From: Escherichia phage vB_EcoM_G17
Reading direction: 5' to 3' (one strand)
DNA length: 64,000 nt
Sequence record: MK327931.1
Within the stretch, counting starts at the first letter, position 1. Every line of letters starts with the position of its first letter. The position numbers were made by a program, and so were the translations under genes. Positions 44,247 to 64,000 of the stretch are shown here, one piece after another. Under the pieces are notes generated by a model, which ran no database searches, had not been told where the DNA came from, and worked only from the letters and a program-made list of their open reading frames with translations.

Positions 44247-44253
44247 GTACTTT

Positions 44254-44830: not shown

Positions 44831-44832
44831 TG

Positions 44833-45033
44833 TTAGATGATTCTCCAATCTTCTACGATCATGGTAAGATAACGGACCATCGATTCAAGTGATTCGAATT
44901 CCCGATAGTCTGCCGCTCCACCAGCGGTACAAGTACAGCCGATTAAACCATTTTGTAATTCCTTAATCTGTACATCGATAAGGTTGGCTTTAGCTTCTTT
45001 CAGTACTTCAACCAGGGCGATAGCGATAGACAT
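44833..45033 (-). CDS. hypothetical protein
   Basis: ORF track; GGAG SD; own promoter cassette. Confidence 0.55.
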   Translation of the reverse strand: MSIAIALVEVLKEAKANLIDVQIKELQNGLIGCTCTAGGAADYREFESLESMVRYLTMIVEDWRII

Positions 45034-45056
45034 AATGTTTTACTCCAAACTATTGA

Positions 45057-45116
45057 CGGGAGAACTATTCCCCCGCTCTATGTAAAACATTATACATTAC
45101 TGGTTAGTACTGTCAA
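45057..45116 (-). promoter_or_regulatory. sigma70-like promoter + leader hairpin cassette
   Basis: -35 TTGACA 45111-45116, 16-bp spacer, -10 TATAAT 45089-45094, hairpin CGGGGGAATAGTTCTCCCG 45057-45075. Confidence 0.6.
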
Positions 45117-45122
45117 ATAGTT

Positions 45123-45380
45123 TTATGAAATATCTTCGATGTAGTCGGCCCATTTCATTTTTTCAGTACTGTCAATGGCTACCGGATTATTTGGATCAAA
45201 CCATTCACCATTCCCGCAATACATACCCACGGCAACGGTTTTATATCCATCCTGTGCAGTACTCCACGACATAGCACGATAGATATGGCCTTTAACTGGT
45301 TGCAATACTGGTAATGTTTTATGGTCTTCTACGTAGGCCATAGCTTGAGGATTTACCCGATATTGTGTGAACTGTTCCAT
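45123..45380 (-). CDS. hypothetical protein
   Basis: ORF track. Confidence 0.65.
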   Translation of the reverse strand: MEQFTQYRVNPQAMAYVEDHKTLPVLQPVKGHIYRAMSWSTAQDGYKTVAVGMYCGNGEWFDPNNPVAIDSTEKMKWADYIEDIS

Positions 45381-45408
45381 TATGTTTCCCCTTGTAGTTA
45401 GTAAAGTT

Positions 45409-45437
45409 ATTACATCAGTACTATCAAGCTATGTCAA
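45409..45437 (-). promoter_or_regulatory. sigma70-like promoter (no leader hairpin)
   Basis: -35 TTGACA 45432-45437, 17-bp spacer, -10 TGTAAT 45409-45414. Confidence 0.5.
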
Positions 45438-45456
45438 TAGTACTGAAATAAAACTT

Positions 45457-45681
45457 TTAGATTAGATTATTGATGCCGTTGATGGTAGACTCGCTTTCTT
45501 CTTTCTCCCATTGGCGGTAGTACTTCCATGCTTCATGATATGTGGCGATTAGTTCATCTTTTTGATCCTGAGTACATGCCAGTACTGAATCACGGTGAGC
45601 GGTTTTATAGATAGAATCGAATGATTTCTTCTCTTCTGCCAGGTTAGCTACTTCCCGCATCAGTTCATCAAAGTTAGCCAT
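45457..45681 (-). CDS. hypothetical protein
   Basis: ORF track; AAGGAG SD. Confidence 0.65.
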   Translation of the reverse strand: MANFDELMREVANLAEEKKSFDSIYKTAHRDSVLACTQDQKDELIATYHEAWKYYRQWEKEESESTINGINNLI

Positions 45682-45699
45682 TTTATTACTCCTTTTAGT

Positions 45700-45756
45700 G
45701 GGGGAGGATATCTCCCCCTATGCAAAACATTATACTTTGTTTTAGTTATTATGCAA
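45700..45756 (-). promoter_or_regulatory. sigma70-like promoter + leader hairpin cassette
   Basis: -35 TTGCAT 45751-45756 (overlaps stop of 45749..46012), 16-bp spacer, -10 TATAAT 45729-45734, hairpin GGGGGAG..CTCCCCC 45700-45718. Confidence 0.6.
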
Positions 45757-46012
45757 GTACTTTTTTCATATAAAGATTATATTCTACACCGCCGTAACCT
45801 TCTACGATGATATGTTTTGCGTTATCACGTTTGCACATAGTGAAACCGTTGTTGATGTGTTCTGCATTTTCCAGGGCGACATCACCGATAGCGGCACATA
45901 CGGCACTAATAACAGTATTCCGCAAAGTACTGGTATCATTAGCGGTCATAGTAGTTTGCAGTACTACGTTGTCGTATACGTGTGCATTGATAGTGATTTC
46001 GATAGTGTTCAT
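45749..46012 (-). CDS. hypothetical protein
   Basis: ORF track; GGAG SD. Confidence 0.65.
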   Translation of the reverse strand: MNTIEITINAHVYDNVVLQTTMTANDTSTLRNTVISAVCAAIGDVALENAEHINNGFTMCKRDNAKHIIVEGYGGVEYNLYMKKVLA

Positions 46013-46030
46013 GGTGTATCTCCTGGACTG

Positions 46031-46091
46031 GCGGGAGAACTATTCCCCCGCTCTATGTAAAACATTATACGTTAATCTAACTACAATGCAA
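46031..46091 (-). promoter_or_regulatory. sigma70-like promoter + leader hairpin cassette
   Basis: -35 TTGCAT 46086-46091, 16-bp spacer, -10 TATAAT 46064-46069, hairpin 46031-46051. Confidence 0.6.
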
Positions 46092-46098
46092 GTACTTT

Positions 46099-46290
46099 TT
46101 AAATTTTATTTCCGATATAGTCCGGTCTATTCTTTTCGGTCATACGCTTTGCTAATGTTTGCATATGGCTTATTGCGTTTAATGTGTCTTCCTCCAGGGA
46201 TGAATCAACATAATCAGGATCATTCTTCACCTTGCAATGATTATGATAGCGTAGTACTGCCAGTACTTTTTTAACTTCTTCTACTGTCAT
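46099..46290 (-). CDS. hypothetical protein
   Basis: ORF track; ATGA-coupled to 46287..46559. Confidence 0.6.
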   Translation of the reverse strand: MTVEEVKKVLAVLRYHNHCKVKNDPDYVDSSLEEDTLNAISHMQTLAKRMTEKNRPDYIGNKI

Positions 46291-46559
46291 AATAAGTACC
46301 CCACTTCGTTAGCTTTCAGGTTAGTATCAATCATCAGTGGATTTTTGTAGTTCACAAAACGATTAGTTTTCTCGATAGCGAATCCCATATAATCCAGCTT
46401 ACTAACAGTACATTCATTCTTAAAAACTTCTTTCGCTGCATCGATGGCTGATTGCATGGATAACCGACCATCTAAATTAATGTTTCCAAATGATCCACCA
46501 GCAGAAGTAGGATTACCGTTCATATCTTTAATGATCATAGTAGCGGAGTAGCTGGACAT
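46287..46559 (-). CDS. hypothetical protein
   Basis: ORF track; AAGGA SD. Confidence 0.65.
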   Translation of the reverse strand: MSSYSATMIIKDMNGNPTSAGGSFGNINLDGRLSMQSAIDAAKEVFKNECTVSKLDYMGFAIEKTNRFVNYKNPLMIDTNLKANEVGYLL

Positions 46560-46581
46560 AATTTTGTTTCCTTTTAGTATC

Positions 46582-46640
46582 GGGGAGAACTATTCTCCCC
46601 TTGATGTAAACTATTATACAGTACTGATATACTTTGTCAA
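46582..46640 (-). promoter_or_regulatory. sigma70-like promoter + leader hairpin cassette
   Basis: -35 TTGACA 46635-46640, 16-bp spacer containing CAGTACTG, -10 TATAAT 46613-46618, hairpin GGGGAGAA-TAG-TTCTCCCC 46582-46600. Confidence 0.65.
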
Positions 46641-46646
46641 ATACTT

Positions 46647-47054
46647 TTATTCGCCCATATAGATTAAGTTATCATCGCCTACATAGGGATCGCAAACGTT
46701 GATTTCTTCGCAGTACTTCGTGAATACATCGCCATAGTGACCTAAACCACGATCCCAAAAACCAGTTCCGTGACCTTCGCGGGTAAGGAACAGATCATGA
46801 CCAGCTTGCTCATAACCGTAATCAATAAACATACCGCGAACTACTTCCAGATCATTACCGTGTTTCTCAATGAAGCGAGAACATGCAATCACCGCCGCTT
46901 GACGTGCTTCATCAGATAACTCATAATCTTCCAGGTAATCGCCGTTATCATTATGTACAGTACTGAATTGCATAGCTTCAATGTAAGCTACAACCATTGC
47001 AGCATGATTTTTATCGTTAGTGATGTTCCGAGCGAGATTAGTAGTAGTAGACAT
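46647..47054 (-). CDS. hypothetical protein
   Basis: ORF track; AAGGAA SD. Confidence 0.7.
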   Translation of the reverse strand: MSTTTNLARNITNDKNHAAMVVAYIEAMQFSTVHNDNGDYLEDYELSDEARQAAVIACSRFIEKHGNDLEVVRGMFIDYGYEQAGHDLFLTREGHGTGFWDRGLGHYGDVFTKYCEEINVCDPYVGDDNLIYMGE

Positions 47055-47075
47055 GATTTTATTCCTTATTGTATT

Positions 47076-47134
47076 GGGGAGAACTATTCTCCCCTTGATG
47101 TAAACTATTATACAGTACTGATATACTTTGTCAA
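47076..47134 (-). promoter_or_regulatory. sigma70-like promoter + leader hairpin cassette
   Basis: -35 TTGACA 47129-47134, 16-bp spacer, -10 TATAAT 47107-47112, hairpin 47076-47094; stop of upstream gene 4 bp from -35. Confidence 0.65.
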
Positions 47135-47137
47135 TAC

Positions 47138-54266: not shown

Positions 54267-54356
54267 TTAAATCACCATAAAGAATAGATAGGTTACTAAC
54301 AACGCCGCGATCAATGCACCGACCAGGGCCGAACTATAGTAAGCTAATGTTTTCAT
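54267..54356 (-). CDS. hypothetical hydrophobic micro-protein (29 aa)
   Basis: MKTLAYYSSALVGALIAALLVTYLFFMVI; coupled between two small genes. Confidence 0.3.
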   Translation of the reverse strand: MKTLAYYSSALVGALIAALLVTYLFFMVI

Positions 54357-54505
54357 TTTTTAGCCTGAAAATAATGTTTAATTTGTGCGGCGGTCAATGC
54401 ACAATTACGCAGGAAGTTTTCTGTATAACTGCGGCGAGTACTGAAAGAGAATTGACCTTTGCCGTTGCCGATAGTAACATCAAACCGAGCGTTGTATTGT
54501 TTCAT
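54353..54505 (-). CDS. hypothetical small protein (50 aa)
   Basis: Below ORF-track cutoff; ATG with AAGGAG SD directly after promoter cassette. Confidence 0.45.
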   Translation of the reverse strand: MKQYNARFDVTIGNGKGQFSFSTRRSYTENFLRNCALTAAQIKHYFQAKK

Positions 54506-54521
54506 TTTGATTCTCCTTGTA

Positions 54522-54586
54522 TCAGGGGAGAACCATTTCCCCCCCCTCTATGTAAACAATTATACAGTACTGGAAACTAATTGCAA
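54522..54586 (-). promoter_or_regulatory. sigma70-like promoter + leader hairpin cassette
   Basis: -35 TTGCAA 54581-54586, 16-bp spacer, -10 TATAAT 54559-54564, hairpin GGGGAGAACCATTTCCCCC about 54522-54546. Confidence 0.6.
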
Positions 54587-54589
54587 GTA

Positions 54590-54736
54590 CTATTTTTTAG
54601 ATTTACGCAAACTTTCTACCATCTCAGGAGTAAGGCCCGGCGGGTAGGAAACCACTTCATCCACAAAACGCAAAGGGAATACCCCAGCGAAAGGTGAACG
54701 TGCTTTCTTGTTAGTACTCTTTTTTGATGCTTTCAT
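54590..54736 (-). CDS. hypothetical small basic protein (48 aa)
   Basis: Below ORF-track cutoff; ATG with AAGGAA SD. Confidence 0.45.
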   Translation of the reverse strand: MKASKKSTNKKARSPFAGVFPLRFVDEVVSYPPGLTPEMVESLRKSKK

Positions 54737-54755
54737 TTCATATTCCTTAATTAGT

Positions 54756-54815
54756 GGGGAGAATCATTTCTCCCCTTCATGTAAAACATTATACAGTACT
54801 GAAAACTAATTGCAA
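54756..54815 (-). promoter_or_regulatory. sigma70-like promoter + leader hairpin cassette
   Basis: -35 TTGCAA 54810-54815, 16-bp spacer, -10 TATAAT 54788-54793, hairpin GGGGAGAA..TTCTCCCC 54756-54775. Confidence 0.6.
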
Positions 54816-55015
54816 GTACTATTTGAAAGTAAATGCTCATACGCTGCATTAACTACGTTTTCAATAACCGACTGTACAGAAAGATCCCCCACGTCCCGGC
54901 TATAGTAGAAATCGCTTACAGTGGTGTCATCGTATGCAAATACTTTACCAGGTACGGCATCAATCACATACATATTAACCTTTAAGATGTCGATCTTATC
55001 CTGTACAGTAAGCAT
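54806..55015 (-). CDS. hypothetical protein
   Basis: ORF track; 3-prime end overlaps -35 of downstream cassette. Confidence 0.55.
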   Translation of the reverse strand: MLTVQDKIDILKVNMYVIDAVPGKVFAYDDTTVSDFYYSRDVGDLSVQSVIENVVNAAYEHLLSNSTCN

Positions 55016-55020
55016 ATTAA

Positions 55021-55293
55021 TTAACCTTTTAAGTACTGGCTTAAGTAGTCTTGTTGATCTTCGGTGATTGCAGCCATCTTCCCTAGTACTGGATTGATGA
55101 TATAATCCCCTGTAACGTCCTGTAACGCATTCTCAGGCGGTTTAACGGCTGGGGTAGCCATAGCCATTGCCTGGACTTGTTCGACGCTGTAACGCTCATA
55201 AAGGCGGCATTCTTCCGGTGTTAACATAGCATCAGTACGCTTCATCGGTTTAATGATGCTTTCGATCTCATTCAGTACTTGATTAACGTTCAT
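55021..55293 (-). CDS. hypothetical protein
   Basis: ORF track. Confidence 0.65.
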   Translation of the reverse strand: MNVNQVLNEIESIIKPMKRTDAMLTPEECRLYERYSVEQVQAMAMATPAVKPPENALQDVTGDYIINPVLGKMAAITEDQQDYLSQYLKG

Positions 55294-55344
55294 GGTATAA
55301 TCCCCAATATAAGCGGCCTGAATCGACCGCTAACGATGTTTTGA

Positions 55345-55614
55345 TTAATAGGTGTATGGTTGACGTTCAAACAATGATTGCACGTTGTACGCCCCACTAA
55401 TGGGCTTTGCTGGTAAATCAATTTTATATTGTTCACGCTTAAAGATAATAAAACGGCAATTGTTTTTTACATCAAAATTGATTGAACGTTCCAGGAGTTT
55501 TCCATCGTGTACAAATACAAGATAACCGCTTGCTACTTGTTTTGTAGTACTGGTTGCAACCATAGACCGACGAACATGCGTACCTGCATCGATTAAAGTA
55601 CTGATATTTTTCAT
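55345..55614 (-). CDS. hypothetical protein
   Basis: ORF track; AGAGGA SD. Confidence 0.65.
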   Translation of the reverse strand: MKNISTLIDAGTHVRRSMVATSTTKQVASGYLVFVHDGKLLERSINFDVKNNCRFIIFKREQYKIDLPAKPISGAYNVQSLFERQPYTY

Positions 55615-55694
55615 TATACGATCCTCTTAAGTTAATTTAATTTCTTTCCCCTATGCAGACACTATATCAAAGTATCTGCATAAAGTAAAGCTAA

Positions 55695-56018
55695 TTAAAG
55701 ATCTTTTTTGCGTTTAACATTCTGTACAGTACAATGCAACGGGATATTAAGATCATTGCACACACGAGTAAGGGAGGTTTCATCAGTATTAAGCCCGTCT
55801 ACTGATTCCTTTAAGAGAGATAACGCCGTTTGTTGATATGCATCTTCATAGCCATAAGTAAATGATTCAACCGCCAGATCATTCAAACCGTTATCCAGTT
55901 CAACGCTTACATGACAAGAATGATAAGTATTGCCATATGAATCAGTCCAACGTTTACCGTCAACATTGATTGCACGGATTGCAGCCAGGGAAACGGTGTT
56001 AATGATAGTTTTAGCCAT
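55695..56018 (-). CDS. hypothetical protein (paralog of 49577..49900)
   Basis: ORF track; AAGGAA SD; shared RWTDxxGNTYHSC motif. Confidence 0.7.
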   Translation of the reverse strand: MAKTIINTVSLAAIRAINVDGKRWTDSYGNTYHSCHVSVELDNGLNDLAVESFTYGYEDAYQQTALSLLKESVDGLNTDETSLTRVCNDLNIPLHCTVQNVKRKKDL

Positions 56019-56059
56019 TTTTGTATTCCTTAAATTAATATGTTGTCTTGATAAAATCT

Positions 56060-56088
56060 ATTATGCCAGTACTATCAAACTATGTCAA
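56060..56088 (-). promoter_or_regulatory. sigma70-like promoter (no GC hairpin)
   Basis: -35 TTGACA 56083-56088, 17-bp spacer, -10 CATAAT 56060-56065. Confidence 0.5.
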
Positions 56089-56107
56089 TAGTACTGTGAT
56101 AATATTT

Positions 56108-56251
56108 TTACTTACTTTTTGCTTTCTTTGCTGCTTCCACCTGGTCGGCCCATTCTTTACCCCATACTTGTAAATTATAATGGTACTGGCAAAGAGCAAC
56201 GCCCCGCTTTAAACCCGTAATAGATTTCTGACCACATTGACAAGTTTTCAT
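56108..56251 (-). CDS. hypothetical small Cys-containing protein (47 aa)
   Basis: Below ORF-track cutoff; MKTCQCGQ...CQYH; ATG with AAGGAA SD. Confidence 0.45.
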   Translation of the reverse strand: MKTCQCGQKSITGLKRGVALCQYHYNLQVWGKEWADQVEAAKKAKSK

Positions 56252-56268
56252 TTTAGTTTCCTTGTAGT

Positions 56269-56328
56269 GGGGAGAACCATTTCTCCCCTTGATGTAATGT
56301 ATTATACTTTATTCGATTTACTTTGCAA
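56269..56328 (-). promoter_or_regulatory. sigma70-like promoter + leader hairpin cassette
   Basis: -35 TTGCAA 56323-56328, 16-bp spacer, -10 TATAAT 56301-56306, hairpin GGGGAGAA..TTCTCCCC 56269-56288. Confidence 0.65.
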
Positions 56329-56337
56329 GTACTTTTT

Positions 56338-56565
56338 TTAATTTAATTCATCCAGGCAAAGGATACGCTCAACGCCCAAATCAGTTAAACTAATCGACGG
56401 CACTTGATAGGTTTCAATGTATGCTACACTTGCCCACTGACCGAACTCATTAACGGCCCAGGTATTCATTGCATTTTGCAATTCCGCACCTTCCTTGTTG
56501 GTAATTACAGCAACAGTAGAAGAATTACCAGTAGTACCAGATACGCGAGTGATTACGATAGCCAT
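56338..56565 (-). CDS. hypothetical protein
   Basis: ORF track. Confidence 0.65.
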   Translation of the reverse strand: MAIVITRVSGTTGNSSTVAVITNKEGAELQNAMNTWAVNEFGQWASVAYIETYQVPSISLTDLGVERILCLDELN

Positions 56566-56597
56566 TTTTTAATTCCTATTCAGTAGTTGATGTATGT

Positions 56598-56626
56598 ATT
56601 ATGTCAGTACTTAAAACTATTGTCAA
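56598..56626 (-). promoter_or_regulatory. sigma70-like promoter (no GC hairpin)
   Basis: -35 TTGACA 56621-56626, 17-bp spacer, -10 CATAAT 56598-56603. Confidence 0.5.
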
Positions 56627-56634
56627 ACTATTTT

Positions 56635-56787
56635 TTAAAGTTTATCAATGATTGATGCCGTTTCATTGATAGTCTTGCCGTGTTTTGCACACGCGATAAC
56701 TGCTTTAAATTCCTTTGATGACCAATCTTTCTTGCTGCATACTGACATTACTTGTAAAGTAAAACAATCCAGTTCATAAGTATTCAT
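56635..56787 (-). CDS. hypothetical small protein (50 aa)
   Basis: Below ORF-track cutoff; ATG with GAGGA SD. Confidence 0.45.
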   Translation of the reverse strand: MNTYELDCFTLQVMSVCSKKDWSSKEFKAVIACAKHGKTINETASIIDKL

Positions 56788-56832
56788 CTTTAAATCCTCA
56801 GTTAGTTAAGGTGTCTCGCCTTGATGTAATTA

Positions 56833-56860
56833 ATTATACGCTAATCTCTTAATCGTGCAA
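56833..56860 (-). promoter_or_regulatory. sigma70-like promoter (short leader hairpin)
   Basis: -35 TTGCAC 56855-56860, 16-bp spacer, -10 TATAAT 56833-56838. Confidence 0.5.
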
Positions 56861-57001
56861 GTACTTTTTATTACTTTTTGCAAAATACTTTAAACGCTCT
56901 CAATCGCATTCTAACGACCTTAACTCCACCAGCTAGGGCGATGTATCAGATAATCAGTTTAATGCGTTAGGCGGTGCTAGTGGACTGGAATACTATAGAC
57001 A

Positions 57002-57030
57002 CAAAAAAGCCCACTGTTTAAGGTGGGCTA
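57002..57030 (-). terminator. rho-independent terminator
   Basis: Hairpin AGCCCAC-CTTAAACA-GTGGGCT 57008-57029 followed on minus strand by U6; after stop of 57051..57533. Confidence 0.7.
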
Positions 57031-57050
57031 GTGATTCAGTACTTTAATTT

Positions 57051-57533
57051 TTATGCTTCAACTTTGCGATGAGCTTCGATCCATTCCTCGCGAGTCATAC
57101 CGCTTTCTTTGATAGCGTCCAGTACTACCGCAATGCAGTTACCGCGTACAGGAATCAAATGTTCTTCCCCGTTATCAAGTACTACCGCTACACGTTCCTG
57201 AATCCATTTTTTAGGCTTAGATTCCGGCTTATCTTCACCATACTTAACCGCCAGGGCTTTATGTGCCATTTCCACAACCACTTCCAGATCCAATCCAGAC
57301 ACTGCCGCCTGAATACTTTCAATTGTTGCTTGTAGTTCTGCTTCACGGGCTTTTTTCTGTTCTTCCAGTTCTGCTACCTTTTTGGCTTGCAGTTCTTTCG
57401 CAGTACTGTACGCAATGTTAAAATTGTTGCGTACCGCTTTCATGGTATCGCTATCCAGTTCAGCCAGGATTTCTGCCGCTACGTTAGTTTCATTTGCTAC
57501 CAGTGCTTTGATGAATGATTTTACATTAGCCAT
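57051..57533 (-). CDS. hypothetical protein (coiled-coil rich)
   Basis: ORF-track start is TTG; trimmed to ATG (MANVKSF) with GAGGA SD; Lys/Glu/Ala-rich helical repeats. Confidence 0.65.
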   Translation of the reverse strand: MANVKSFIKALVANETNVAAEILAELDSDTMKAVRNNFNIAYSTAKELQAKKVAELEEQKKAREAELQATIESIQAAVSGLDLEVVVEMAHKALAVKYGEDKPESKPKKWIQERVAVVLDNGEEHLIPVRGNCIAVVLDAIKESGMTREEWIEAHRKVEA

Positions 57534-57656
57534 TTTATAAATCCTCAATTAAAGTTTAGTTTACGTTAGATAGTGTATCAAAGTTTTCTCGACGTGTCCA
57601 GTTTTTCGTTCGACTTACTGGCGGTCTACTTAGTGCTCCCCGTCTTGATGTAATAC
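57534..57656 (-). other. conserved structured leader element, copy 3 (5-prime UTR of 57051..57533)
   Basis: About 120-nt leader beginning ACATCAAGACGGGGAGC, homologous to 50596-50680 and 60584-60672. Confidence 0.4.
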
Positions 57657-57684
57657 ATTCTACGCTTTTCTGTGGTAATGTCAA
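57657..57684 (-). promoter_or_regulatory. sigma70-like promoter
   Basis: -35 TTGACA 57679-57684, 16-bp spacer, -10 TAGAAT 57657-57662. Confidence 0.55.
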
Positions 57685-57737
57685 CTACTTTTTTAAAACT
57701 ATTTTTAAAGTATCTCAGTACTACGATACTACAAAAA

Positions 57738-57766
57738 CAAAAAAGCCCACTGTTTAAGGTGGGCTA
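57738..57766 (-). terminator. rho-independent terminator (duplicate of 57002-57030)
   Basis: Identical hairpin AGCCCACTGTTTAAGGTGGGCT 57744-57765 with A/U runs; after stop of 57783..58082. Confidence 0.7.
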
Positions 57767-57782
57767 GTGATTCAGTACTAGA

Positions 57783-58082
57783 TTATAAACAGTTAATTAC
57801 TCCGGTGTGCGTTACTTTCTCAGTATCCATAACCGTGACCGATCCACGCTTAGTACTGGCATCATAATAAATTGTGGTGCTACCGTTTTCGTCTTCTTCA
57901 TGGAACGGGCCGTTTTTAAATGCTTCCGGCTGGATCTCTAAATCCTTTAATACAATCTCGCCAGTTCTTTCATCGGTCATTGCAACAGTGCACTGAATGA
58001 ATTTTTCATTACTTACATCTAATGACGCATTAACAGCGAAAGAGGAAACAGATAAAGCCAGGGCGATGATTGCAATTTTCAT
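57783..58082 (-). CDS. hypothetical secreted or lipoprotein-like protein
   Basis: N-terminal signal-peptide-like MKIAIIALALSVSSFAVNAS; AAGGA SD. Confidence 0.65.
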   Translation of the reverse strand: MKIAIIALALSVSSFAVNASLDVSNEKFIQCTVAMTDERTGEIVLKDLEIQPEAFKNGPFHEEDENGSTTIYYDASTKRGSVTVMDTEKVTHTGVINCL

Positions 58083-58102
58083 TTGATTATCCTTAGTTAC
58101 CA

Positions 58103-58161
58103 GGGGGAACCGCTCCCCCTTGCTATGTAAAATATTATACAGTACTAAAAACTAATTGCAA
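58103..58161 (-). promoter_or_regulatory. sigma70-like promoter + leader hairpin cassette
   Basis: -35 TTGCAA 58156-58161, 16-bp spacer, -10 TATAAT 58134-58139, hairpin GGGGGAACCGCTCCCCC 58103-58119. Confidence 0.6.
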
Positions 58162-58166
58162 GTACT

Positions 58167-58403
58167 TTATGATTTTTTATAAAACATTTCGGCAGTGATA
58201 TTTTTACCCGTTGGCTGTACTTTATCCAGAATTTTTTGATGCCCTGGCCGTCCAAATGAATATGATCCGTAAACCGTAAACCAGTAGTTACCCTCAGTGT
58301 TTACATGTACAGCACAATAGGGAACGCCCCGCGATTCATCACTAGTAAAGTGTGCTACCGTTCCCGTTACATTCGAAGTCGTTGATTTGATTTGTTCAAG
58401 CAT
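58167..58403 (-). CDS. hypothetical protein
   Basis: ORF track; AAGGAA SD. Confidence 0.65.
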   Translation of the reverse strand: MLEQIKSTTSNVTGTVAHFTSDESRGVPYCAVHVNTEGNYWFTVYGSYSFGRPGHQKILDKVQPTGKNITAEMFYKKS

Positions 58404-58423
58404 TTTCTTATTCCTTAGTTACC

Positions 58424-58477
58424 AGGGGAACCGCTCCCCTATGCAAAACATTATACGCGTTTAAAAACTAATAGCAA
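58424..58477 (-). promoter_or_regulatory. sigma70-like promoter + leader hairpin cassette
   Basis: -35 TTGCTA 58472-58477, 16-bp spacer, -10 TATAAT 58450-58455, hairpin AGGGGAACCGCTCCCCT 58424-58440. Confidence 0.55.
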
Positions 58478-58510
58478 GTATTTTAATAAAAAGTATTTGG
58501 AAAATAATTG

Positions 58511-58539
58511 TTGACAAGTGCATCCAGTACTGGCATAAT
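58511..58539 (+). promoter_or_regulatory. plus-strand sigma70-like promoter
   Basis: -35 TTGACA 58511-58516, 17-bp spacer with AGTACT, -10 CATAAT 58534-58539; opposite orientation to flanking genes. Confidence 0.5.
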
Positions 58540-58545
58540 TACTAC

Positions 58546-58653
58546 ATCAAGACGAAACAGTCACTAACCCACCGGGTGCATAGATCCGTCTATTAAATGA
58601 TTCAGTACTGAAAAAGTAACGGGGAGTTATTATCTCCCCGCGTTGTTATTTTG
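58546..58653 (+). ncRNA. candidate small RNA (promoter-to-terminator unit, about 105 nt)
   Basis: Starts about 7 nt after -10, contains motif AACCCACCGGGTGCATAG, ends at hairpin CGGGGAG-TTATTAT-CTCCCCG 58620-58640 plus U-rich tail; no ORF. Confidence 0.4.
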
Positions 58654-58867
58654 TAAGGTATAAACAGAAGTCACCTTTATTTGCTACGCCGCCAGTGTAA
58701 CGCGATGAATAGTTAGAAATATCTTGTACTTCTGCTATTACCAGTGTATCATCATTCATTTCGTCGCAGAAGCAAACGGCTGGATCTTTTACGCCGATAT
58801 TGTCGGCATGTTCCCGCATAGATTTAACCAGTGCTTCCAGTTGAGAAAGAGTAGTGATATTAGCCAT
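58646..58867 (-). CDS. hypothetical protein
   Basis: ORF track 58646..58897 trimmed to ATG (MANITTLSQ) with GAGGA SD. Confidence 0.6.
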   Translation of the reverse strand: MANITTLSQLEALVKSMREHADNIGVKDPAVCFCDEMNDDTLVIAEVQDISNYSSRYTGGVANKGDFCLYLTK

Positions 58868-58885
58868 TGTATTTTCCTCATTACC

Positions 58886-58945
58886 AGGGAGAACCATTTC
58901 TCCCCTCTATGTAAACTATTATACAGTACTGAAAACTAATTGCAA
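58886..58945 (-). promoter_or_regulatory. sigma70-like promoter + leader hairpin cassette
   Basis: -35 TTGCAA 58940-58945, 16-bp spacer, -10 TATAAT 58918-58923, hairpin about 58886-58906. Confidence 0.6.
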
Positions 58946-58953
58946 GTACTTTT

Positions 58954-59157
58954 TTAATTTAATTGCTTTAAAACATACTCAAAGACACCACGCACATCAT
59001 TGATCATCGCCTGGCGGTTAGCAGGTAACGCATCAGGATCGCCACTATCCCAGGCATTGATAAAACTCCCCAAATCATGATAGATTTTATTCTGTAAGCC
59101 GATTAACTGTAATTCTTTTTCTTCAAGCTCTTTGATGCGGTCGATTAAATCACTCAT
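58954..59157 (-). CDS. hypothetical protein
   Basis: ORF track 58954..59193 trimmed to ATG (MSDLIDRIK) with TGAGGATTATCTA SD. Confidence 0.55.
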   Translation of the reverse strand: MSDLIDRIKELEEKELQLIGLQNKIYHDLGSFINAWDSGDPDALPANRQAMINDVRGVFEYVLKQLN

Positions 59158-59174
59158 TAGATAATCCTCAGTAC

Positions 59175-59459
59175 TTAACTGTAAGATCCGCAACGGTCGC
59201 AGTAGTGCCCGTCCTCGTCATCGTCAACGAATTGACCGACGAAATGATCTACTTTCGCTTTCAGGTTATTATAATCGTTTTCTACTTCATTTAAACGCTT
59301 CTGGTAGTATTCCAGTGCTTTAAGATATGCCGCATCAGCAGTTTTCTCCTGCATAGCTAAATTCATGCCACGCGTTTCATCGTACAGCCAAAAACCATCG
59401 GTGCACTGGCTAATAGATAATGACTTGCTTAGTACTGTATAGTTAATTACTTTACCCAT
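59175..59459 (-). CDS. hypothetical protein
   Basis: ORF track; same SD sequence as downstream gene; C-terminal CDRCG. Confidence 0.65.
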   Translation of the reverse strand: MGKVINYTVLSKSLSISQCTDGFWLYDETRGMNLAMQEKTADAAYLKALEYYQKRLNEVENDYNNLKAKVDHFVGQFVDDDEDGHYCDRCGSYS

Positions 59460-59476
59460 TAGATAATCCTCAGTAA

Positions 59477-59537
59477 AGGCGGGAACTATTCCCCGCCTCG
59501 ATATAAAGTATTATACGTTAATCTAACTACAATGCAA
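59477..59537 (-). promoter_or_regulatory. sigma70-like promoter + leader hairpin cassette
   Basis: -35 TTGCAT 59532-59537, 16-bp spacer, -10 TATAAT 59510-59515, hairpin AGGCGGGAACTATTCCCCGCCT 59477-59498. Confidence 0.6.
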
Positions 59538-59551
59538 GTACTTTTTAAATT

Positions 59552-59818
59552 TTATAATCCTTTTACTGCATCAGGTGCGACTACTCCATCAATGTATTGA
59601 ACATCGTTTTCAACTTCACGGGCGGCATCATTCAGCAGATCAAAATTAAATTCCATTTCTTCCAGATCATCGAAATCAGGCTCATAACCATTAATTGTTG
59701 AATAAGTCCAAGTACCTTTTTCATAAGTTACGACACTTACATCAGGGAAGAAATCTTGCACATGATCCATCGCATCCCGAACCAATTGATGTGCAGTTGT
59801 GATATTTAAAGTTTTCAT
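59552..59818 (-). CDS. hypothetical protein
   Basis: ORF track. Confidence 0.65.
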   Translation of the reverse strand: MKTLNITTAHQLVRDAMDHVQDFFPDVSVVTYEKGTWTYSTINGYEPDFDDLEEMEFNFDLLNDAAREVENDVQYIDGVVAPDAVKGL

Positions 59819-59839
59819 TTTGTTGCCCTTTTAGTGTGA

Positions 59840-59899
59840 GCGGGGAACCACTCCCCGCCTCGATGTAAAGTATTATACGCTTTTAAACTTAGTTTGCAA
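59840..59899 (-). promoter_or_regulatory. sigma70-like promoter + leader hairpin cassette
   Basis: -35 TTGCAA 59894-59899, 16-bp spacer, -10 TATAAT 59872-59877, hairpin GCGGGGAACCACTCCCCGC 59840-59858. Confidence 0.6.
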
Positions 59900-59911
59900 G
59901 TACTTTTTAAA

Positions 59912-60523
59912 TTAATATGCGATTGATTCTACTACGTCATCAATAACATTGAATTGATATTCGTTACCCTCAATCAGTGCCGTAATGTTTTCAGTAGTGA
60001 ATTGATCCTCATATGCATTCTCTAAATCACGGTACAACTTGCGGGATAATTCACGAATAGTTTCAGTGAGTAGTTCCTCAAGCTCATTAACTAACGTTTC
60101 TTGTTTTGCGGTTAAATCAGTGTAAGCCGATTCAATGTACCCGCTTACAGTATTCTCATGCGAGTAGTGGGAGTGAGAACGCTTTACACTCATCGCCAAA
60201 TCATCTTCATTCAGCAGGTGACGGATTGAGCGATACTTAGTTAATGCTCTTACCTTGCGTAAAAACTTCACTGCGTCAACGTGGTCAGTACTGATTGATG
60301 CACCGTCACCCTGGGACCAAAAACCACTGAATTGTATTTCAGCTTCATTAATGCCATATTCCGGTAGTACTGTTTCTTTATAGTATTCAATTTCACTTTC
60401 AGAAAAATAATTGTCGTTTGAGTTTTTTTCACGTTCCCGAACCAGTTCGATAGCTGACGTTTTTTGTTCTGCGTTCAATTCAGAAAAATCCATAACGAAA
60501 GTAGTAGTAGTGATAGTTTTCAT
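59912..60523 (-). CDS. hypothetical protein
   Basis: ORF track; 203 aa; contains SGFWSQGDGAS; GAGGG SD. Confidence 0.7.
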   Translation of the reverse strand: MKTITTTTFVMDFSELNAEQKTSAIELVREREKNSNDNYFSESEIEYYKETVLPEYGINEAEIQFSGFWSQGDGASISTDHVDAVKFLRKVRALTKYRSIRHLLNEDDLAMSVKRSHSHYSHENTVSGYIESAYTDLTAKQETLVNELEELLTETIRELSRKLYRDLENAYEDQFTTENITALIEGNEYQFNVIDDVVESIAY

Positions 60524-60555
60524 TTTGTAACCCTCATTCAGTAGTTGATGTAAGT

Positions 60556-60583
60556 ATTATACGCTTTTAAAAACATTTGTCAA
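60556..60583 (-). promoter_or_regulatory. sigma70-like promoter
   Basis: -35 TTGACA 60578-60583, 16-bp spacer, -10 TATAAT 60556-60561. Confidence 0.55.
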
Positions 60584-60672
60584 ACTATTTTATCAGGGGA
60601 GTTTTTCGTGTGCCTTACTCCTGGGCTACTTAACGGGAAGTTACTTATTTCGTTCCCCGTCCTGATGTAAAA
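60584..60672 (-). other. conserved structured leader element, copy 2
   Basis: Homologous to 50596-50680, differing at a handful of positions; no ORF. Confidence 0.4.
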
Positions 60673-60673
60673 C

Positions 60674-60701
60674 ATTATACGCCTTTAAACATAGTTTGCA
60701 A
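60674..60701 (-). promoter_or_regulatory. sigma70-like promoter
   Basis: -35 TTGCAA 60696-60701, 16-bp spacer, -10 TATAAT 60674-60679. Confidence 0.5.
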
Positions 60702-60746
60702 GTACTTTTTAAAAATAGTTTTCAGTACTGAATATTTAAAAAAGTA

Positions 60747-60775
60747 TTGACAGCATTATCAAGTACTGGCATAAT
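60747..60775 (+). promoter_or_regulatory. plus-strand sigma70-like promoter
   Basis: -35 TTGACA 60747-60752, 17-bp spacer, -10 CATAAT 60770-60775; transcript would begin with AGCTAACCCACCGGGTGCAC motif. Confidence 0.45.
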
Positions 60776-60890
60776 ATACCCCATGACAACAGCTAACCCA
60801 CCGGGTGCACAATTGTAACTATACTAAACTACTTTTTCTATAGATACACTCCCGCACCCTATGGGCTACGGCTTATCTGCCAATGAATAC

Positions 60891-60919
60891 ATTATGCCAG
60901 TACTGACAAAATAAGTCAA
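60891..60919 (-). promoter_or_regulatory. minus-strand promoter convergent with plus promoter at 60747-60775
   Basis: -35 TTGACT 60914-60919, 17-bp spacer, -10 CATAAT 60891-60896. Confidence 0.4.
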
Positions 60920-60949
60920 TACCGGCAATTGTAAAGATTTGTAAACTGC

Positions 60950-61180
60950 TTATACTGCAATCGCGTCCAGGCTATAATAATAATAAGTGCCGTATTGGTG
61001 TACTTTATTACCTTTTATTTCAGTACTGAATGAATCCGAACGGTTTGCATATGATGTTAATTTAAAGTACTTTGATTTGCTGATACGTTGCCATACACCG
61101 CAGATCCGCTGTAAGTAAGTAGTTTTATTCGTGGTAGTATCTTTTACAGTTTTAACTTCAGTCATATACATATTAGTCAT
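60950..61180 (-). CDS. hypothetical protein
   Basis: ORF track; GGAG SD. Confidence 0.6.
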   Translation of the reverse strand: MTNMYMTEVKTVKDTTTNKTTYLQRICGVWQRISKSKYFKLTSYANRSDSFSTEIKGNKVHQYGTYYYYSLDAIAV

Positions 61181-61201
61181 TTTTATTACTCCAGGTTATA
61201 G

Positions 61202-61260
61202 GCGGGAAGAGTTCCCGCTCTCGATGTAAAACATTATACGCCATTAAACATAGTTTGCAA
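61202..61260 (-). promoter_or_regulatory. sigma70-like promoter + leader hairpin cassette
   Basis: -35 TTGCAA 61255-61260, 16-bp spacer, -10 TATAAT 61233-61238, hairpin GCGGGAA-GAG-TTCCCGC 61202-61218. Confidence 0.6.
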
Positions 61261-61267
61261 GTACTTT

Positions 61268-61534
61268 TTATTCAAGTACTGCAATCTTTTTAGTACGGTA
61301 CACGGTCACGCGGTTGCCCTTTCGGTCGAGCTTTATTTCTACCACTCGACGCGATACACTATCAGGACTTTTCAACGCCGCTAACCAGTACTGTAATGAT
61401 CTGGCGGTACTACGCTTTATAATGGCCCAACGTTTACCACGTTCCGATTGTACGCCCATATCTTTAAACGTTGCCCCGTCCTGGCGTGCGGCGATCCGAG
61501 CTTGTTCACGCGTCGCAAAATACTTAATATTCAT
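61268..61534 (-). CDS. hypothetical protein (paralog of 49086..49490)
   Basis: ORF track 61268..61570 trimmed to ATG (MNIKYFATREQAR) with AAGGG SD. Confidence 0.6.
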   Translation of the reverse strand: MNIKYFATREQARIAARQDGATFKDMGVQSERGKRWAIIKRSTARSLQYWLAALKSPDSVSRRVVEIKLDRKGNRVTVYRTKKIAVLE

Positions 61535-61575
61535 GCTGTTGCCCTTATCGTTGGTGTATGAATAAAACACTATTA

Positions 61576-61606
61576 TAAAGTACTATCGCAAAAAATGATA
61601 GTACTT
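61576..61606. promoter_or_regulatory. 11-bp inverted repeat AAAGTACTATC / GATAGTACTTT (candidate operator or attenuator)
   Basis: Perfect 11-bp arms separated by 9 bp, each containing AGTACT; sits where a -35 box would be expected upstream of 61268..61534. Confidence 0.35.
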
Positions 61607-61619
61607 TAAATAAATTCTA

Positions 61620-61859
61620 TTACATTCCAACCATTGCAGCACGGATCGCAGTAGTGCTATATTTGAATCCGTCCGGCGTTTTATCTTGTCCAGTCTGTTC
61701 TAAAAATAACATCATATGACGGGCCGCATCATTACGATTAGTATTGGCGGCAATAAAGTCCTGGGCCAACCGGTATAATGATTCATCGTTATTAATCCAA
61801 AGGCTTACATTCCAATGAGTTTTGTTTTTGTGACCTAAGAACATTTTTGATTTAGCCAT
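61620..61859 (-). CDS. hypothetical protein
   Basis: ORF track 61620..61898 trimmed to ATG (MAKSKMF) with AAGAGGA SD. Confidence 0.6.
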   Translation of the reverse strand: MAKSKMFLGHKNKTHWNVSLWINNDESLYRLAQDFIAANTNRNDAARHMMLFLEQTGQDKTPDGFKYSTTAIRAAMVGM

Positions 61860-61880
61860 TTTTTTAATCCTCTTATATAG

Positions 61881-61938
61881 TGGGGAACTATTCCCCACCT
61901 GATGTAAAACATTATACGCTTTTAAACATAGTTTGCAA
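61881..61938 (-). promoter_or_regulatory. sigma70-like promoter + leader hairpin cassette
   Basis: -35 TTGCAA 61933-61938, 16-bp spacer, -10 TATAAT 61911-61916, hairpin TGGGGAA-CTA-TTCCCCA 61881-61897. Confidence 0.6.
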
Positions 61939-61952
61939 GTACTTTATTAAAC

Positions 61953-62315
61953 TTATTCGTAAATTTTGCCACTGTCAGCCCATACCAGGAAACGAGGCAT
62001 ATTATCCCATGCATCTTGTTTTAAATTTAAACCGTGTAATACTTCTGTACTTTCCATTCCTGGTACTGGTTTACTATACACCGCGAAATTTTCGCCCATA
62101 TACTGATAAACCATCGTCAAATCACTGGCGATCATCTTATGGATCATCGCATCAAGCATCACGGTAGCGGCGTATTGTTCACGCTTAAGCGGCAACATTG
62201 TAATAAGTTCCCGATAAGCTGAAATGTGAATTTTTACCGTTTCAGCCGGAAGACCTTTCATCTCTTCACGGAAGTTGACCAGGTTAGAAATAATTTTATT
62301 GATTTGGGTCGCCAT
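61953..62315 (-). CDS. hypothetical protein
   Basis: ORF track 61953..62372 trimmed to ATG (MATQINKII). Confidence 0.6.
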   Translation of the reverse strand: MATQINKIISNLVNFREEMKGLPAETVKIHISAYRELITMLPLKREQYAATVMLDAMIHKMIASDLTMVYQYMGENFAVYSKPVPGMESTEVLHGLNLKQDAWDNMPRFLVWADSGKIYE

Positions 62316-62339
62316 CGTATTAATCTCTTTTAAAGTGTA

Positions 62340-62398
62340 GCGGGAAGTGTTCCCGCTCTCGATGTAAAACATTATACGCCTTTAAACATAGTTTGCAA
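62340..62398 (-). promoter_or_regulatory. sigma70-like promoter + leader hairpin cassette (first of the leftward small-gene cluster)
   Basis: -35 TTGCAA 62393-62398, 16-bp spacer, -10 TATAAT 62371-62376, hairpin GCGGGAA-GTG-TTCCCGC 62340-62357. Confidence 0.6.
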
Positions 62399-62634
62399 GT
62401 ACTTTCTACATGTACTTTTAAAATAGTTTTCTTTCTATATAGGGGAACTATCATTCAGTACTATTATTCAGTACTGAATCAACCAAATCACTACTACACC
62501 CCATAAAACGGCCTCAGACGCATTCTAACGCATTAATACACCTAAGCTATACATTTGCACCATTCCAATCATTCCAGGGCTTTACGGGCCGTTTAAACGC
62601 GTTAAATTATTTTCAATTATTTTGTTTTTAGCTA

Positions 62635-62662
62635 TTGACTCAGTACAGAAAAAGCGTATAAT
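62635..62662 (+). promoter_or_regulatory. plus-strand sigma70-like promoter
   Basis: -35 TTGACT 62635-62640, 16-bp spacer, -10 TATAAT 62657-62662. Confidence 0.45.
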
Positions 62663-62850
62663 TACTACATAGACGCGAGAAAGCGGAAACCCCAGAGGGT
62701 GCGGAATTACGCCCAAAATTCAAGATATAAAAAAAGGATACACTCCCGCACCCTAGCAGGTAAACGCACTTTCTCAGTACTGAAATATAGTACCATAGTC
62801 CGGCCCAGGATAGCAAGCAAATTAATTAAAACTTTTTTGCTTCCAGGGTA

Positions 62851-62878
62851 TTGCTTTATTTTTTCAGTACTGTATAAT
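62851..62878 (+). promoter_or_regulatory. plus-strand sigma70-like promoter
   Basis: -35 TTGCTT 62851-62856, 16-bp spacer with CAGTACTG, -10 TATAAT 62873-62878; followed by CATCAAG..AGCCCACCGGGTGCATAG. Confidence 0.45.
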
Positions 62879-63099
62879 AGTTCCATCAAGTCGAGAAAGA
62901 CTCAAGCCCACCGGGTGCATAGTTACGCCCAAAATTCAGTACTGAAAAAATTTTTAAAAATATCCGTCCAGGCCGTTGACATTGCCCCCAGTTTATAAGA
63001 TAATGATTCCAGATTCAGAAAAATCTAACTCCAGATACTGCGGGGAAACTATCCCCACGCGGTAGGGGAACTATTGGAAAAAACAAAATAAAATTTTGA

Positions 63100-63230
63100 T
63101 TTAGCCGTCTATACTTCCAGACGTGTAACCATCTAGCCGTTTAGCCGTCCAAACGTCTAGCCATCCAGAAATCTAGCCGTCTAGATGGATAGCCATCTTT
63201 ACTTCCAGACTTCTGGAGGGCTAGACATAT
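63100..63230. repeat. iteron-like cluster of short direct repeats (TCTAGCC / TAGCCGTC / TAGCCATC)
   Basis: At least 7 copies of CTAGCC-type units within about 130 bp of ORF-free DNA. Confidence 0.5.
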
Positions 63231-63607
63231 CTACGCCCAAAATCCATCCAGGGTAACTACACCCAAAATCCGTCAGTACTATACCATAGATCTATCTTTT
63301 GAAAGGGAGTATTCAGTACTGCCATCATAGCCCTCACTATGTTACCCTAGGAGGATGAAGACCATCATGTAGTACTGAATACTGTTAGAGGGAATCCACC
63401 AGCACAAGCTGGTGGTATAATGCTTTAGATTAAAATCAGTACTGACACCATTCTGTTAATATCAGTACTGTTATTACGATTTTCATATGAGGTTCAAAAA
63501 GATGTACCACCACAGGAGGAACTATCTTTTCTGTACTGTCTCACGACAGGAGGTAGAGTAAATGAATTGTTCGCAGCAACTCATCACCCCTTGAAGCTAT
63601 GTAGAAC

Positions 63608-63635
63608 ATTATACAGTACTGAATCATAATGTCAA
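63608..63635 (-). promoter_or_regulatory. sigma70-like promoter in right-hand control region
   Basis: -35 TTGACA 63630-63635, 16-bp spacer, -10 TATAAT 63608-63613; no obvious downstream ORF. Confidence 0.4.
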
Positions 63636-64000
63636 TAGCTTTCTTTCATTATTCAGTACTGATATTCTTGAGAACTACCCGACTACAAACATCATTATAT
63701 CCCACAAATCATAAACGTCCCAACGTAAATTTCAACTTTCGAAGATCCAACTTTTATTTCATAGGTACTCCAAAATTTTTAGGATCGAGATTTAGGATGG
63801 AGTACTAACCAACTTTTTGCTGGAGCCTCAAGGGGTAATTGAATTTTACCCCGAAGGGTAAAAGGGTAATTGTAATTAAGGTGAAAGTAATAATTCAGTA
63901 CTAATCATTGCGTGATTACTTTTGATTACATTTGATGTAATTTGCAAAATGGAAAAGGAGCTTGGAAACTACAAAGTACGGCAGACTTCCTCTGCCTACT

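Follow-up and report, generated by a model that had tools for sequence, protein, structure and literature searches.

Two facing promoters in the terminal repeat of a jumbo phage flank inverted copies of a conserved ∼57-nt unit, a candidate small-RNA family

We analysed the terminal 64,000 nucleotides of the jumbo phage Escherichia phage vB_EcoM_G17 (record MK327931.1; hereafter 'the window') and within it a non-coding site at positions 60744–60922, where two promoters face each other across a pair of related motifs. The whole module is an imperfect palindrome of ∼180 bp that consists of two promoter-plus-unit copies placed tail to tail, and it is conserved in 8 Asteriusvirus genomes. The repeated unit belongs to a family that is defined in this analysis and that we refer to as 'CCCAYAGGGUGC units'. 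The interpretation that we favour, with modest confidence, is that the site comprises two convergent early small-RNA genes of this undescribed family, with no terminator between them.

The two motifs are located at positions 60795–60810 (AACCCACCGGGTGCAC) and 60843–60867 (GATACACTCCCGCACCCTATGGGCT). A first-pass annotation of this DNA had described them as near reverse complements of one another, which holds: by manual count, the reverse complement of the first agrees with the second at 11 of 16 positions. The complementarity reaches far beyond the motifs, over all of 60744–60922, including promoter arms of 35 nt that are 74% complementary. Sequences within two mismatches of CCACCGGGTGCA occur six times in the window (0.89 expected), as do sequences within three mismatches of CCCGCACCCTATGGG (0.11 expected). 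Because every copy is equally far downstream of a sigma-70-like promoter, both motifs correspond to the same core of a repeated unit, once in each orientation. They were thus not built for the purpose of pairing with each other, but are the invariant cores of a ∼57-nt unit that is present here in two inverted copies and that also occurs solo and in either orientation in related phages (∼60 copies in all). Selection acts on each unit separately: a hairpin within one unit has been swapped without a change in its partner, and terminators of their own follow the solo units.

Along the transcribed strand, from 5′ to 3′, the ∼60 copies share a common order of parts, namely a promoter, ∼7 nt with CA at their end as the probable start site, a first hairpin (hairpin 1), a linker of 4–5 nt, the core and a tail. 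Hairpin 1 has 3–5 bp and an A-rich loop of 6–8 nt (AGAUAA, AGAACAA, GAGAAA or GCGAAA); the sequence of its stem is free and its pairing is kept. Within the core, CCCAYAGGGUGC, the hexamer GGGUGC is constant in 60 of 60 copies save for a single G-to-A change, and the conserved tail of ∼20 nt resembles GGAGAUGUAUCUAU. Coupling to a promoter is equally regular. A sigma-70-like promoter is present at all 60 units. At 58 of them, the −10 element of the promoter chosen by the scan ends 27–35 nt before GGGTGC; 48 of the 60 promoters score at least 10 of 12 consensus matches and 40 carry TGn.

The support for hairpin 1 comes from position-specific covariation, since its short stems (3–4 bp), when compared one by one with shuffled sequences, are not significant (6/60 at p ≤ 0.05). 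In an ungapped MAFFT alignment of 20 units, 94% of cells are paired and all four pairs have changed on both sides, with variants that include GC, CG, AU and UA at one position. None of 500 shuffles was as good, and when partner columns were slid out of register, pairing over the whole structure fell to 10–52% of cells. Across 60 distinct rows of the alignment derived from the covariance model, 90% are paired, with 17–29 double changes per pair. With a plain MAFFT alignment as input, register shifts caused RNAalifold to overlook hairpin 1, and its only output was a helix between GGGUG and YRYCY. That helix represents one of two alternatives for the core, which can pair with the tail (GGGUG/YRYCY) or within itself (RCCC/GGGU); both fit the data, and the tail columns vary almost only by transitions that preserve pairing.

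A covariance model built from the 20-unit alignment was used to search 176 kb from six Rak2-like phage loci, and returned ∼60 matches at E < 1e-3. The terminal-repeat regions compared with the window were those of phages Muenster, fENko-Kae01, CBB, GAP32 and RaK2. The unit is present in Klebsiella phages RaK2, K64-1, Muenster and fENko-Kae01, in Cronobacter phage GAP32, in Pectobacterium phage CBB, in Salmonella phage Munch and its relatives, and in an Erwinia phage, and 101 further units were found in IMG/VR contigs, mostly in jumbo genomes of 345–380 kb. According to a table in the fEgEco12 paper, the fENko-Kae01/Munch group and the Yersinia Eneladusvirus phages share only ∼23–30% nucleotide identity with Asteriusvirus; it is notable that a non-coding element has been kept at the nucleotide level across such a distance.

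The units are also restricted in where they occur. The window stops exactly at the physical left terminus of the genome. The reverse complement of the window end (63800–64000; AGTAGGCAGAGGAAGTCTGCC...) matches fEgEco12 and vB_Ec-M-J identically from their first position onward. Around the site (60400–61300), the sequence agrees with that of Escherichia phage Sharanji (an Asteriusvirus jumbo phage of 350 kb) at 100% identity and with those of ∼35 relatives at 88–99%. The direct terminal repeat of Sharanji is 20,668 bp in length (PMC11895373), and the repeat therefore spans roughly 43.3–64.0 kb of the window, placing the site 3.1–3.25 kb from the physical left end and inside the ∼20.7-kb repeat. 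Ten units are located in this repeat and none in the other 43.3 kb of the window, despite ∼39 strong minus-strand promoters in the latter.

The two facing promoters at the site were found by a consensus scan at the positions where the first-pass annotation had placed them, both with the TG of an extended −10 element. The promoter of unit b (plus strand, 60747–60775) consists of TTGACA, a 17-nt spacer and TGgCATAAT, with 11 of 12 consensus matches; that of unit c (minus strand, 60919–60891) consists of TTGACT, a 17-nt spacer and TGgCATAAT, with 10 of 12. The scan alone is weak evidence, because it reports 14 sites in a 3-kb region compared with 10.8 ± 2.3 in shuffled sequence. Both hexamer pairs are nonetheless unchanged in the 8 Asteriusvirus genomes (88–100% identical here), the sole change being that of CATAAT to TATAAT, nearer the consensus, in the unit b promoter of phage A4. 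The predicted start sites are at about A60783 for unit b and at A60884 for unit c, and the distance from the end of the −10 element to GGGTGC is 27 nt in unit b (the short class of the family) and 31 nt in unit c. The −35 element of unit c lies within a 13-bp stem-loop on the minus strand (60895–60927; −20.9 kcal/mol, z = −7.3), just downstream of the stop codon of the neighbouring gene gp098; the promoter of unit b is associated with no significant stem (z = 0.35).

Unit c (minus strand, 60834–60889) is canonical and matches the covariance model with 49.9 bits (E = 4.5e-11). Its hairpin 1 is formed by GGC (60881–60879) and GCC (60872–60870) around the loop AGAUAA, followed by the core CCCAUAGGGUGC at 60865–60854 and the tail GGGAGUGUAUCUAUAG. 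Unit b (plus strand, 60783–60828; core CCCACCGGGTGC at 60797–60808) is degenerate, with a match of 27.1 bits (E = 2.5e-4), and has lost its 5′ hairpin through a 7-nt deletion; its orthologues in EJP2 and WPEC3 retain the hairpin GAC-GAGAAA-GUC and score 54.6 bits. From the coordinates of the model matches, a 5-nt spacer (60829–60833) separates the two tails at the centre of dyad symmetry. In phages 121Q, A4 and TH47, the hairpin region of unit c has been swapped for a different one. Since hairpin 1 is exchanged singly among relatives in this way, the units evolve as modules, each keeping the features of the family.

Units occur in three kinds of surroundings. Tail-to-tail pairs hold 24 of the 60 units (40%). 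An abutting layout of a 57-nt unit, ∼5 nt and an inverted 57-nt unit is found in Sharanji (both pairs), CBB (three pairs), GAP32 (three pairs) and several IMG/VR contigs, with a core-to-core spacing of 68 nt in nearly all abutting pairs and 70 nt in the second pair of Sharanji; the starts of the plus and minus units are 62 nt apart at the site and likewise in CBB, GAP32 and IMG/VR contigs. The pairs of Alcyoneusvirus and the fENko group are looser (79–91 nt), and no closely spaced head-to-head pair was seen among the units collected. The distances of pairs from the left genome end are similar as well, at ∼1.0–1.3 and ∼3.2–3.9 kb in Sharanji and CBB and at ∼1.0 kb in fENko-Kae01. The second tail-to-tail pair of the window combines a clear plus-strand unit (62666–62722, 32.2 bits) with a degenerate minus-strand unit (62728–62785) that is detected only by regular expression, and is located in a gene-free 1.6 kb by the genome end.

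Solo units that are directed against genes are followed by a bidirectional terminator ∼20 nt downstream in 7 of 7 cases. In the window, such a unit on the plus strand (58543–58599, 59.2 bits) lies between its promoter (58511–58539) and a bidirectional terminator (58620–58640), an arrangement that predicts a small RNA of ∼100 nt from 58511–58640; judged by its parts, the combination of solo unit, promoter and terminator has the anatomy of a putative ∼100-nt small-RNA gene. Four further solo units (44729–44774, 47476–47532, 50750–50801 and 54033–54089; minus strand, 38.6 to 68.1 bits) are gene-sense, and are positioned between the stem-loop of the upstream gene, whose stem contains the −35 element of the unit, and the next gene's own promoter. 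Phage lambda encodes a small RNA, OOP, that has its own promoter and intrinsic terminator. The solo units directed against genes resemble it in their promoter, structured body of ∼60 nt and terminator, and in being convergent with a neighbouring gene. They differ from OOP in that the solo antisense unit inspected in fENko-Kae01 meets its terminator shortly before the adjacent coding sequence begins, and so lacks an antisense target at that locus. They also have no sequence similarity to OOP, and the multi-copy nature of the family (∼10 per repeat) and its invariant 12-nt core set it apart both from OOP and from the non-coding RNAs of phage PA5oct described below.

If the units are small-RNA genes, they would be transcribed in vivo with the RNA itself as the product: host RNA polymerase would fire the unit promoters once the terminal repeat enters the cell, yielding short non-coding RNAs that, if abundant, could act as a binding site or decoy for a protein. 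A role of this kind is suggested by the presence of ∼10 genes per repeat and two repeats per genome, the strong promoters, the early location and the invariant core. Pairing to a phage target is unlikely, since the window outside the units contains no complementary site save three bare GCACCC hexamers (39.9–42.5 kb). At the site itself, the gene-sense, canonical unit c on the minus strand would be read towards the antisense, partly decayed unit b on the plus strand, which it abuts across the 5-nt spacer. Because no terminator is found between units b and c, the polymerases would have to meet or to cross the partner unit, and run-through would therefore produce 3′ extensions that pair back onto their own unit and are antisense to the RNA of the partner. 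The outcome might be mutual interference, processing of double-stranded RNA, or both, standing in for a terminator.

The first-pass annotation had predicted a sense and antisense RNA pair, or a transcript with a long internal stem. That prediction survives in part: the promoters are convergent and conserved, no terminator separates them, and read-through would give both products, but the motifs are not an ad hoc pair. Cis-antisense overlap would arise only if each RNA passes its own 57-nt unit, and is possibly a consequence of the tail-to-tail layout, itself conserved across genera. In PA5oct, a distant relative, the terminal repeat is transcribed early and yields two abundant non-coding RNAs of 236–619 nt (PMC7318152). 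That precedent makes expression of the units plausible and is not evidence for this family. A bolder proposal, which we put forward as possible but unlikely, is that the units represent a new class of multi-copy early RNA, confined to the terminal repeat and produced in large amounts from at least 20 gene copies during the first minutes, in which the core and 5′ hairpin would capture or reprogramme a host or phage protein (as a decoy against a host defence or RNA-decay factor, or as a modifier of RNA polymerase) and in which the pairs would make defined short RNAs without terminators, by collision or by processing of double-stranded RNA.

Several points weigh against reading the units as small-RNA genes. 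We infer the activity of the promoters and the ends of the RNAs from sequence, and a decoy or protein-binding role is likewise something that the arrangement suggests by inference. The gene-sense solo units mostly have no terminator before the next gene's promoter, and in that setting the element may instead serve as a leader, not as a free small RNA. The 20 seed sequences were picked for their register in the alignment, and the larger alignment was obtained by fitting to the model, which bears on the covariation reported above. The core is invariant, and its pairing is for that reason beyond covariation testing; one compensatory case fits RCCC/GGGU and one case favours GGGUG/YRYCY. Finally, unit b, with its low score and no hairpin 1, may no longer work as a unit.

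The site occupies a 426-bp gap between two small minus-strand genes. The upstream gene, gp098 (60950–61180), identified from its open reading frame and annotation, encodes a protein of 76 amino acids with function unassigned (PHROG 5293), and the downstream gene, gp097 (59912–60523), encodes a protein of 203 amino acids, also with function unassigned (PHROG 5162). Two tandem promoters of its own (60701–60674 and 60583–60556) precede gp097. A transcript reading through from gp098 would include the entire palindrome, and unit b is directed antisense into gp098. On the minus-strand RNA a U6 tract (60738–60743) stands, by sequence and fold, immediately 3′ of the base of the 180-nt hairpin.

Among described systems, the nearest is the PeSL (promoter-early stem-loop) of T4-like phages, a composite cassette of a stem-loop and an early promoter that flanks genes of unknown function and mediates their insertion, deletion and replacement by recombination, including through mini-circles (Arbiol et al. 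2010, PMC2839356; Comeau et al. 2014, PMC4122927). The units resemble PeSL in several respects: a repeated intergenic stem-loop able to terminate upstream transcription is combined with a strong sigma-70-type early promoter, the composites are concentrated among small genes of unknown function, and the modules differ between close relatives. At the site, the unit c promoter is a strong early promoter beside a stable intergenic stem-loop, as in a PeSL. The units differ from PeSL in that their −35 element lies inside the stem, in that a conserved, putatively transcribed element of ∼57 nt, absent from the PeSL descriptions, follows the promoter, and in that they are found in both orientations, in fixed tail-to-tail pairs and also without a downstream gene. 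What they add to the PeSL concept is the conserved transcribed unit, its presence in either orientation, the fixed pairing and the copies in gene-free DNA. Stem-loop and promoter composites are located at 47540–47575, 54095–54125 and 60895–60927 on the minus strand (z = −4.7 to −7.3), where the −35 sequence TTGAC forms part of the terminator-like stem of the upstream gene and the U-rich tail extends into the −10 element; these three (near 47.55 kb, near 54.1 kb and at 60895–60927) are PeSL-like, with a tighter overlap.

The palindrome could alternatively function as a gene-sense RNA hairpin (60922–60744, ∼180 nt, then U6) that serves as a terminator, insulator, 3′-end stabiliser or RNase III site between gp098 and gp097, with unit b kept mainly as a complementary arm; this explanation, which we regard as unlikely while taking it seriously, could coexist with small-RNA genes. 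The inner 109 nt fold equally well on both strands (z = −5.6), but the full 180 nt folds to −90.6 kcal/mol (z = −9.2) on the minus strand, with U6 directly after it, compared with only −58.9 kcal/mol (z = −5.2) on the plus strand. The minus strand has 10–11 G·U pairs and the plus strand 0–1, and each of the 10 transition differences between the arms gives a G·U pair on the former. In 8 of 8 Asteriusvirus variants the better fold is that of the sense strand, which is also favoured, with promoter arms included, in 9 of 12 pairs overall, with one more tied; unit b is off the family consensus yet still complementary to unit c. We regard this bias as suggestive, not decisive: the pairs compared are not independent, a sense strand with more G than C itself favours G·U pairs, and for the orthologous pairs of CBB and GAP32 (20.8 and 22.9 kb) it is the antisense strand that gives by far the better fold. 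As a terminator the structure would be unusual, because its 180 nt far exceed known intrinsic terminators and the basal stem by the U tract consists largely of A and U; no terminator is reported there by the consensus scan, and gp098 is already followed by the local 13-bp stem-loop. Phage T7 carries RNase III processing hairpins between its early genes. The palindrome is similar in forming a long imperfect hairpin in the sense transcript between two early genes, and differs in being about three times longer, in consisting of two promoter-bearing repeats and in having no sequence relation to the T7 hairpins. A sense hairpin also leaves the conserved promoters and the solo units unexplained.

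Those promoters are central to the regulatory switch suggested by the first-pass annotation. At this site it would be a transcriptional-interference or antisense switch, in which the winning direction would set the expression of gp097 or silence gp098. Two strong promoters do stand face to face ∼115 bp apart with no terminator between them, the direction of unit c continues into gp097 and that of unit b runs antisense into gp098, and the layout is conserved. The promoters pR and pL of coliphage 186 likewise face each other and act by transcriptional interference; the site shares with them strong convergent promoters ∼100 bp apart and the lack of an intervening terminator. Both promoters here, however, drive copies of one non-coding unit and not alternative gene sets. 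Moreover, gp097 owns two strong promoters downstream of the pair, such pairs are also present in gene-free terminal DNA (62666–62785, and ∼1 kb from the CBB end), no regulator gene, operator or regulated gene is evident, and these are lytic phages with no known binary decision between states at this stage. We consider a switch very unlikely. It is slightly harder still to see the unit as a cis-acting leader that would modify polymerase for read-through of early terminators, by analogy with processive antitermination through HK022 put or lambda nut boxB. The unit does start exactly at the promoter +1 position, it has two small hairpins, of which the first combines a free stem with conserved A-rich loops (GAGAAA, GCGAAA, AGAACAA) like those of peptide-bound hairpins, and the gene-sense units lie upstream of terminators and genes. 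This apparent likeness to put and nut is nevertheless accompanied by no sequence or Rfam similarity to known antitermination RNAs; units that are paired or directed against genes would drive terminator-resistant polymerases backwards into genes, and solo antisense units stand right before terminators, as if meant to stop there. We give least credence to the pair being a by-product of the shuffling of mobile promoter and stem-loop cassettes (an inversion or deletion scar) or a palindrome that acts at the DNA level, as an origin or protein site. The region is made of small genes without assigned function, an orphan promoter-and-leader copy is found at 60652–60711, hairpin 1 is exchanged as a module among close relatives, and the composites of stem-loop and promoter fit the PeSL description (PMC2839356, PMC4122927). 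A scar would decay, however, and hairpin covariation is unexpected for a site in duplex DNA, whereas the units keep an invariant core at a fixed distance from the start site, hairpin covariation across genera at ∼23–30% nucleotide identity, and a 57+5+57 pair geometry that recurs in several genera.

The family is apparently undescribed, with no match in Rfam, in host genomes or plasmids, or in the searchable literature. A search of the 64-kb window with Rfam 15 gave nothing at gathering thresholds, the best scores within 60500–61100 being at most 17 bits against thresholds of at least 45 (E up to 10). Literature searches with the core 12-mers led to five papers, none of which, by title or abstract, concerns these phages, and the element is absent from the papers on Sharanji, CBB and fEgEco12. 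Transcript mapping of Rak2-like phages themselves was not found in the literature examined. A tRNA or tmRNA remnant is not indicated, as ARAGORN finds none in the window. Nor is a mimic of host sequence: blastn against 5,426 E. coli genomes gives nothing, and against plasmids it gives just two matches at chance level. An insertion at the site in relatives had been considered from 'two-piece' megablast matches of ∼1550 bp, which are due to repeated promoters; the gene order of fEgEco12 around the site is collinear. A mini-open reading frame in the tail (a Shine–Dalgarno-like GGGUG, then NUG UAU CUA UAG) was rejected, as it has a start codon in only 35 of 60 units, with frames of 1–33 codons. 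CsrA-type GGA loops, judged by eye, do not fit, as GGA is present in ∼60% of tails and is not conserved; nor, on informal inspection by eye, do the RfaH ops element, type I-E and I-F CRISPR repeats, the ToxI repeat, or DnaA and IHF boxes.

Rak2-like jumbo phages (Asteriusvirus, Alcyoneusvirus, Mimasvirus and relatives) are widely isolated for therapy, and most of their predicted genes have no known function. The analysis turns an odd intergenic site into a defined, searchable family of ∼57-nt structured elements tied to a strong host-type promoter, whose copy number, location in the repeat, conservation and pairs form a pattern as expected of an RNA important in the first minutes of infection. 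Should the unit prove to be only a promoter leader or a shuffling cassette, the PeSL concept would still be extended from T4-like to jumbo phages. Several deposited records, in addition, call for a correction of their annotation, as they carry small open reading frames across the elements. Such frames of 30–60 codons cross the unit pair or its promoters in 121Q (gene 270, segment 370–555) and fEgEco12 (g05, 2476–2586), and the records of two further relatives have calls across the elements at segments 336–452 and 536–634; given the conserved non-coding element there, these small frames are probably spurious.

Among the ten nearest proteins, none has an informative Pfam or PHROG assignment, and a Pfam search with the gp097 protein of Sharanji gave nothing significant. 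Muenster gene 006 (segment 18767–19378), annotated as a YeeU-like antitoxin, is 612 nt long and occupies a position similar to that of gp097 (59912–60523); on length and position alone, it may be the gp097 counterpart. The Muenster terminal repeat is also annotated with a YafQ-like ribonuclease toxin. A module comprising the gp098 promoter and 5′ leader (61211–61270) is duplicated with 92% identity at 60652–60711, where a leader-like hairpin is followed by no open reading frame, just upstream of the gp097 consensus promoter (60583–60556); this duplicate looks like the scar of a deleted gene cassette.

At the extreme end of the Muenster record (positions 1–30; segment 22404–22432), a core motif stands 17 nt from the left terminus predicted by PhageTerm, as GCACCCAGTGGGC read inward and with no promoter. 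The same terminal sequence is internal in the permuted RaK2 record and was not seen at the Asteriusvirus, CBB or fENko termini; AAGTCG at positions 14–19 is common to the Muenster and CBB termini. The terminal 1.6 kb of the window (62400–64000) contains no credible gene and includes the second convergent pair, an outward-pointing unit (62882–62938) and many AGTACT sites. G+C content climbs from ∼0.31–0.33 to ∼0.37–0.40 near 42–44 kb, close to the inner repeat boundary placed above.

The hexamer AGTACT occurs 251 times in the window (1–64000), compared with ∼21 expected from base composition, and is densest at 44000–64000 and 0–28000, with almost none in 28–44 kb. In gene promoters it lies shortly before the −35 element (AAGTACTTGCAA); in unit promoters it is part of the spacer, ahead of the −10 element (AGTACTGGCATAAT); and after units it takes the form of the palindrome TTCAGTACTGAA. 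AGTACT may mark where a regulator of phage or host origin acts, or may be an element associated with promoters.

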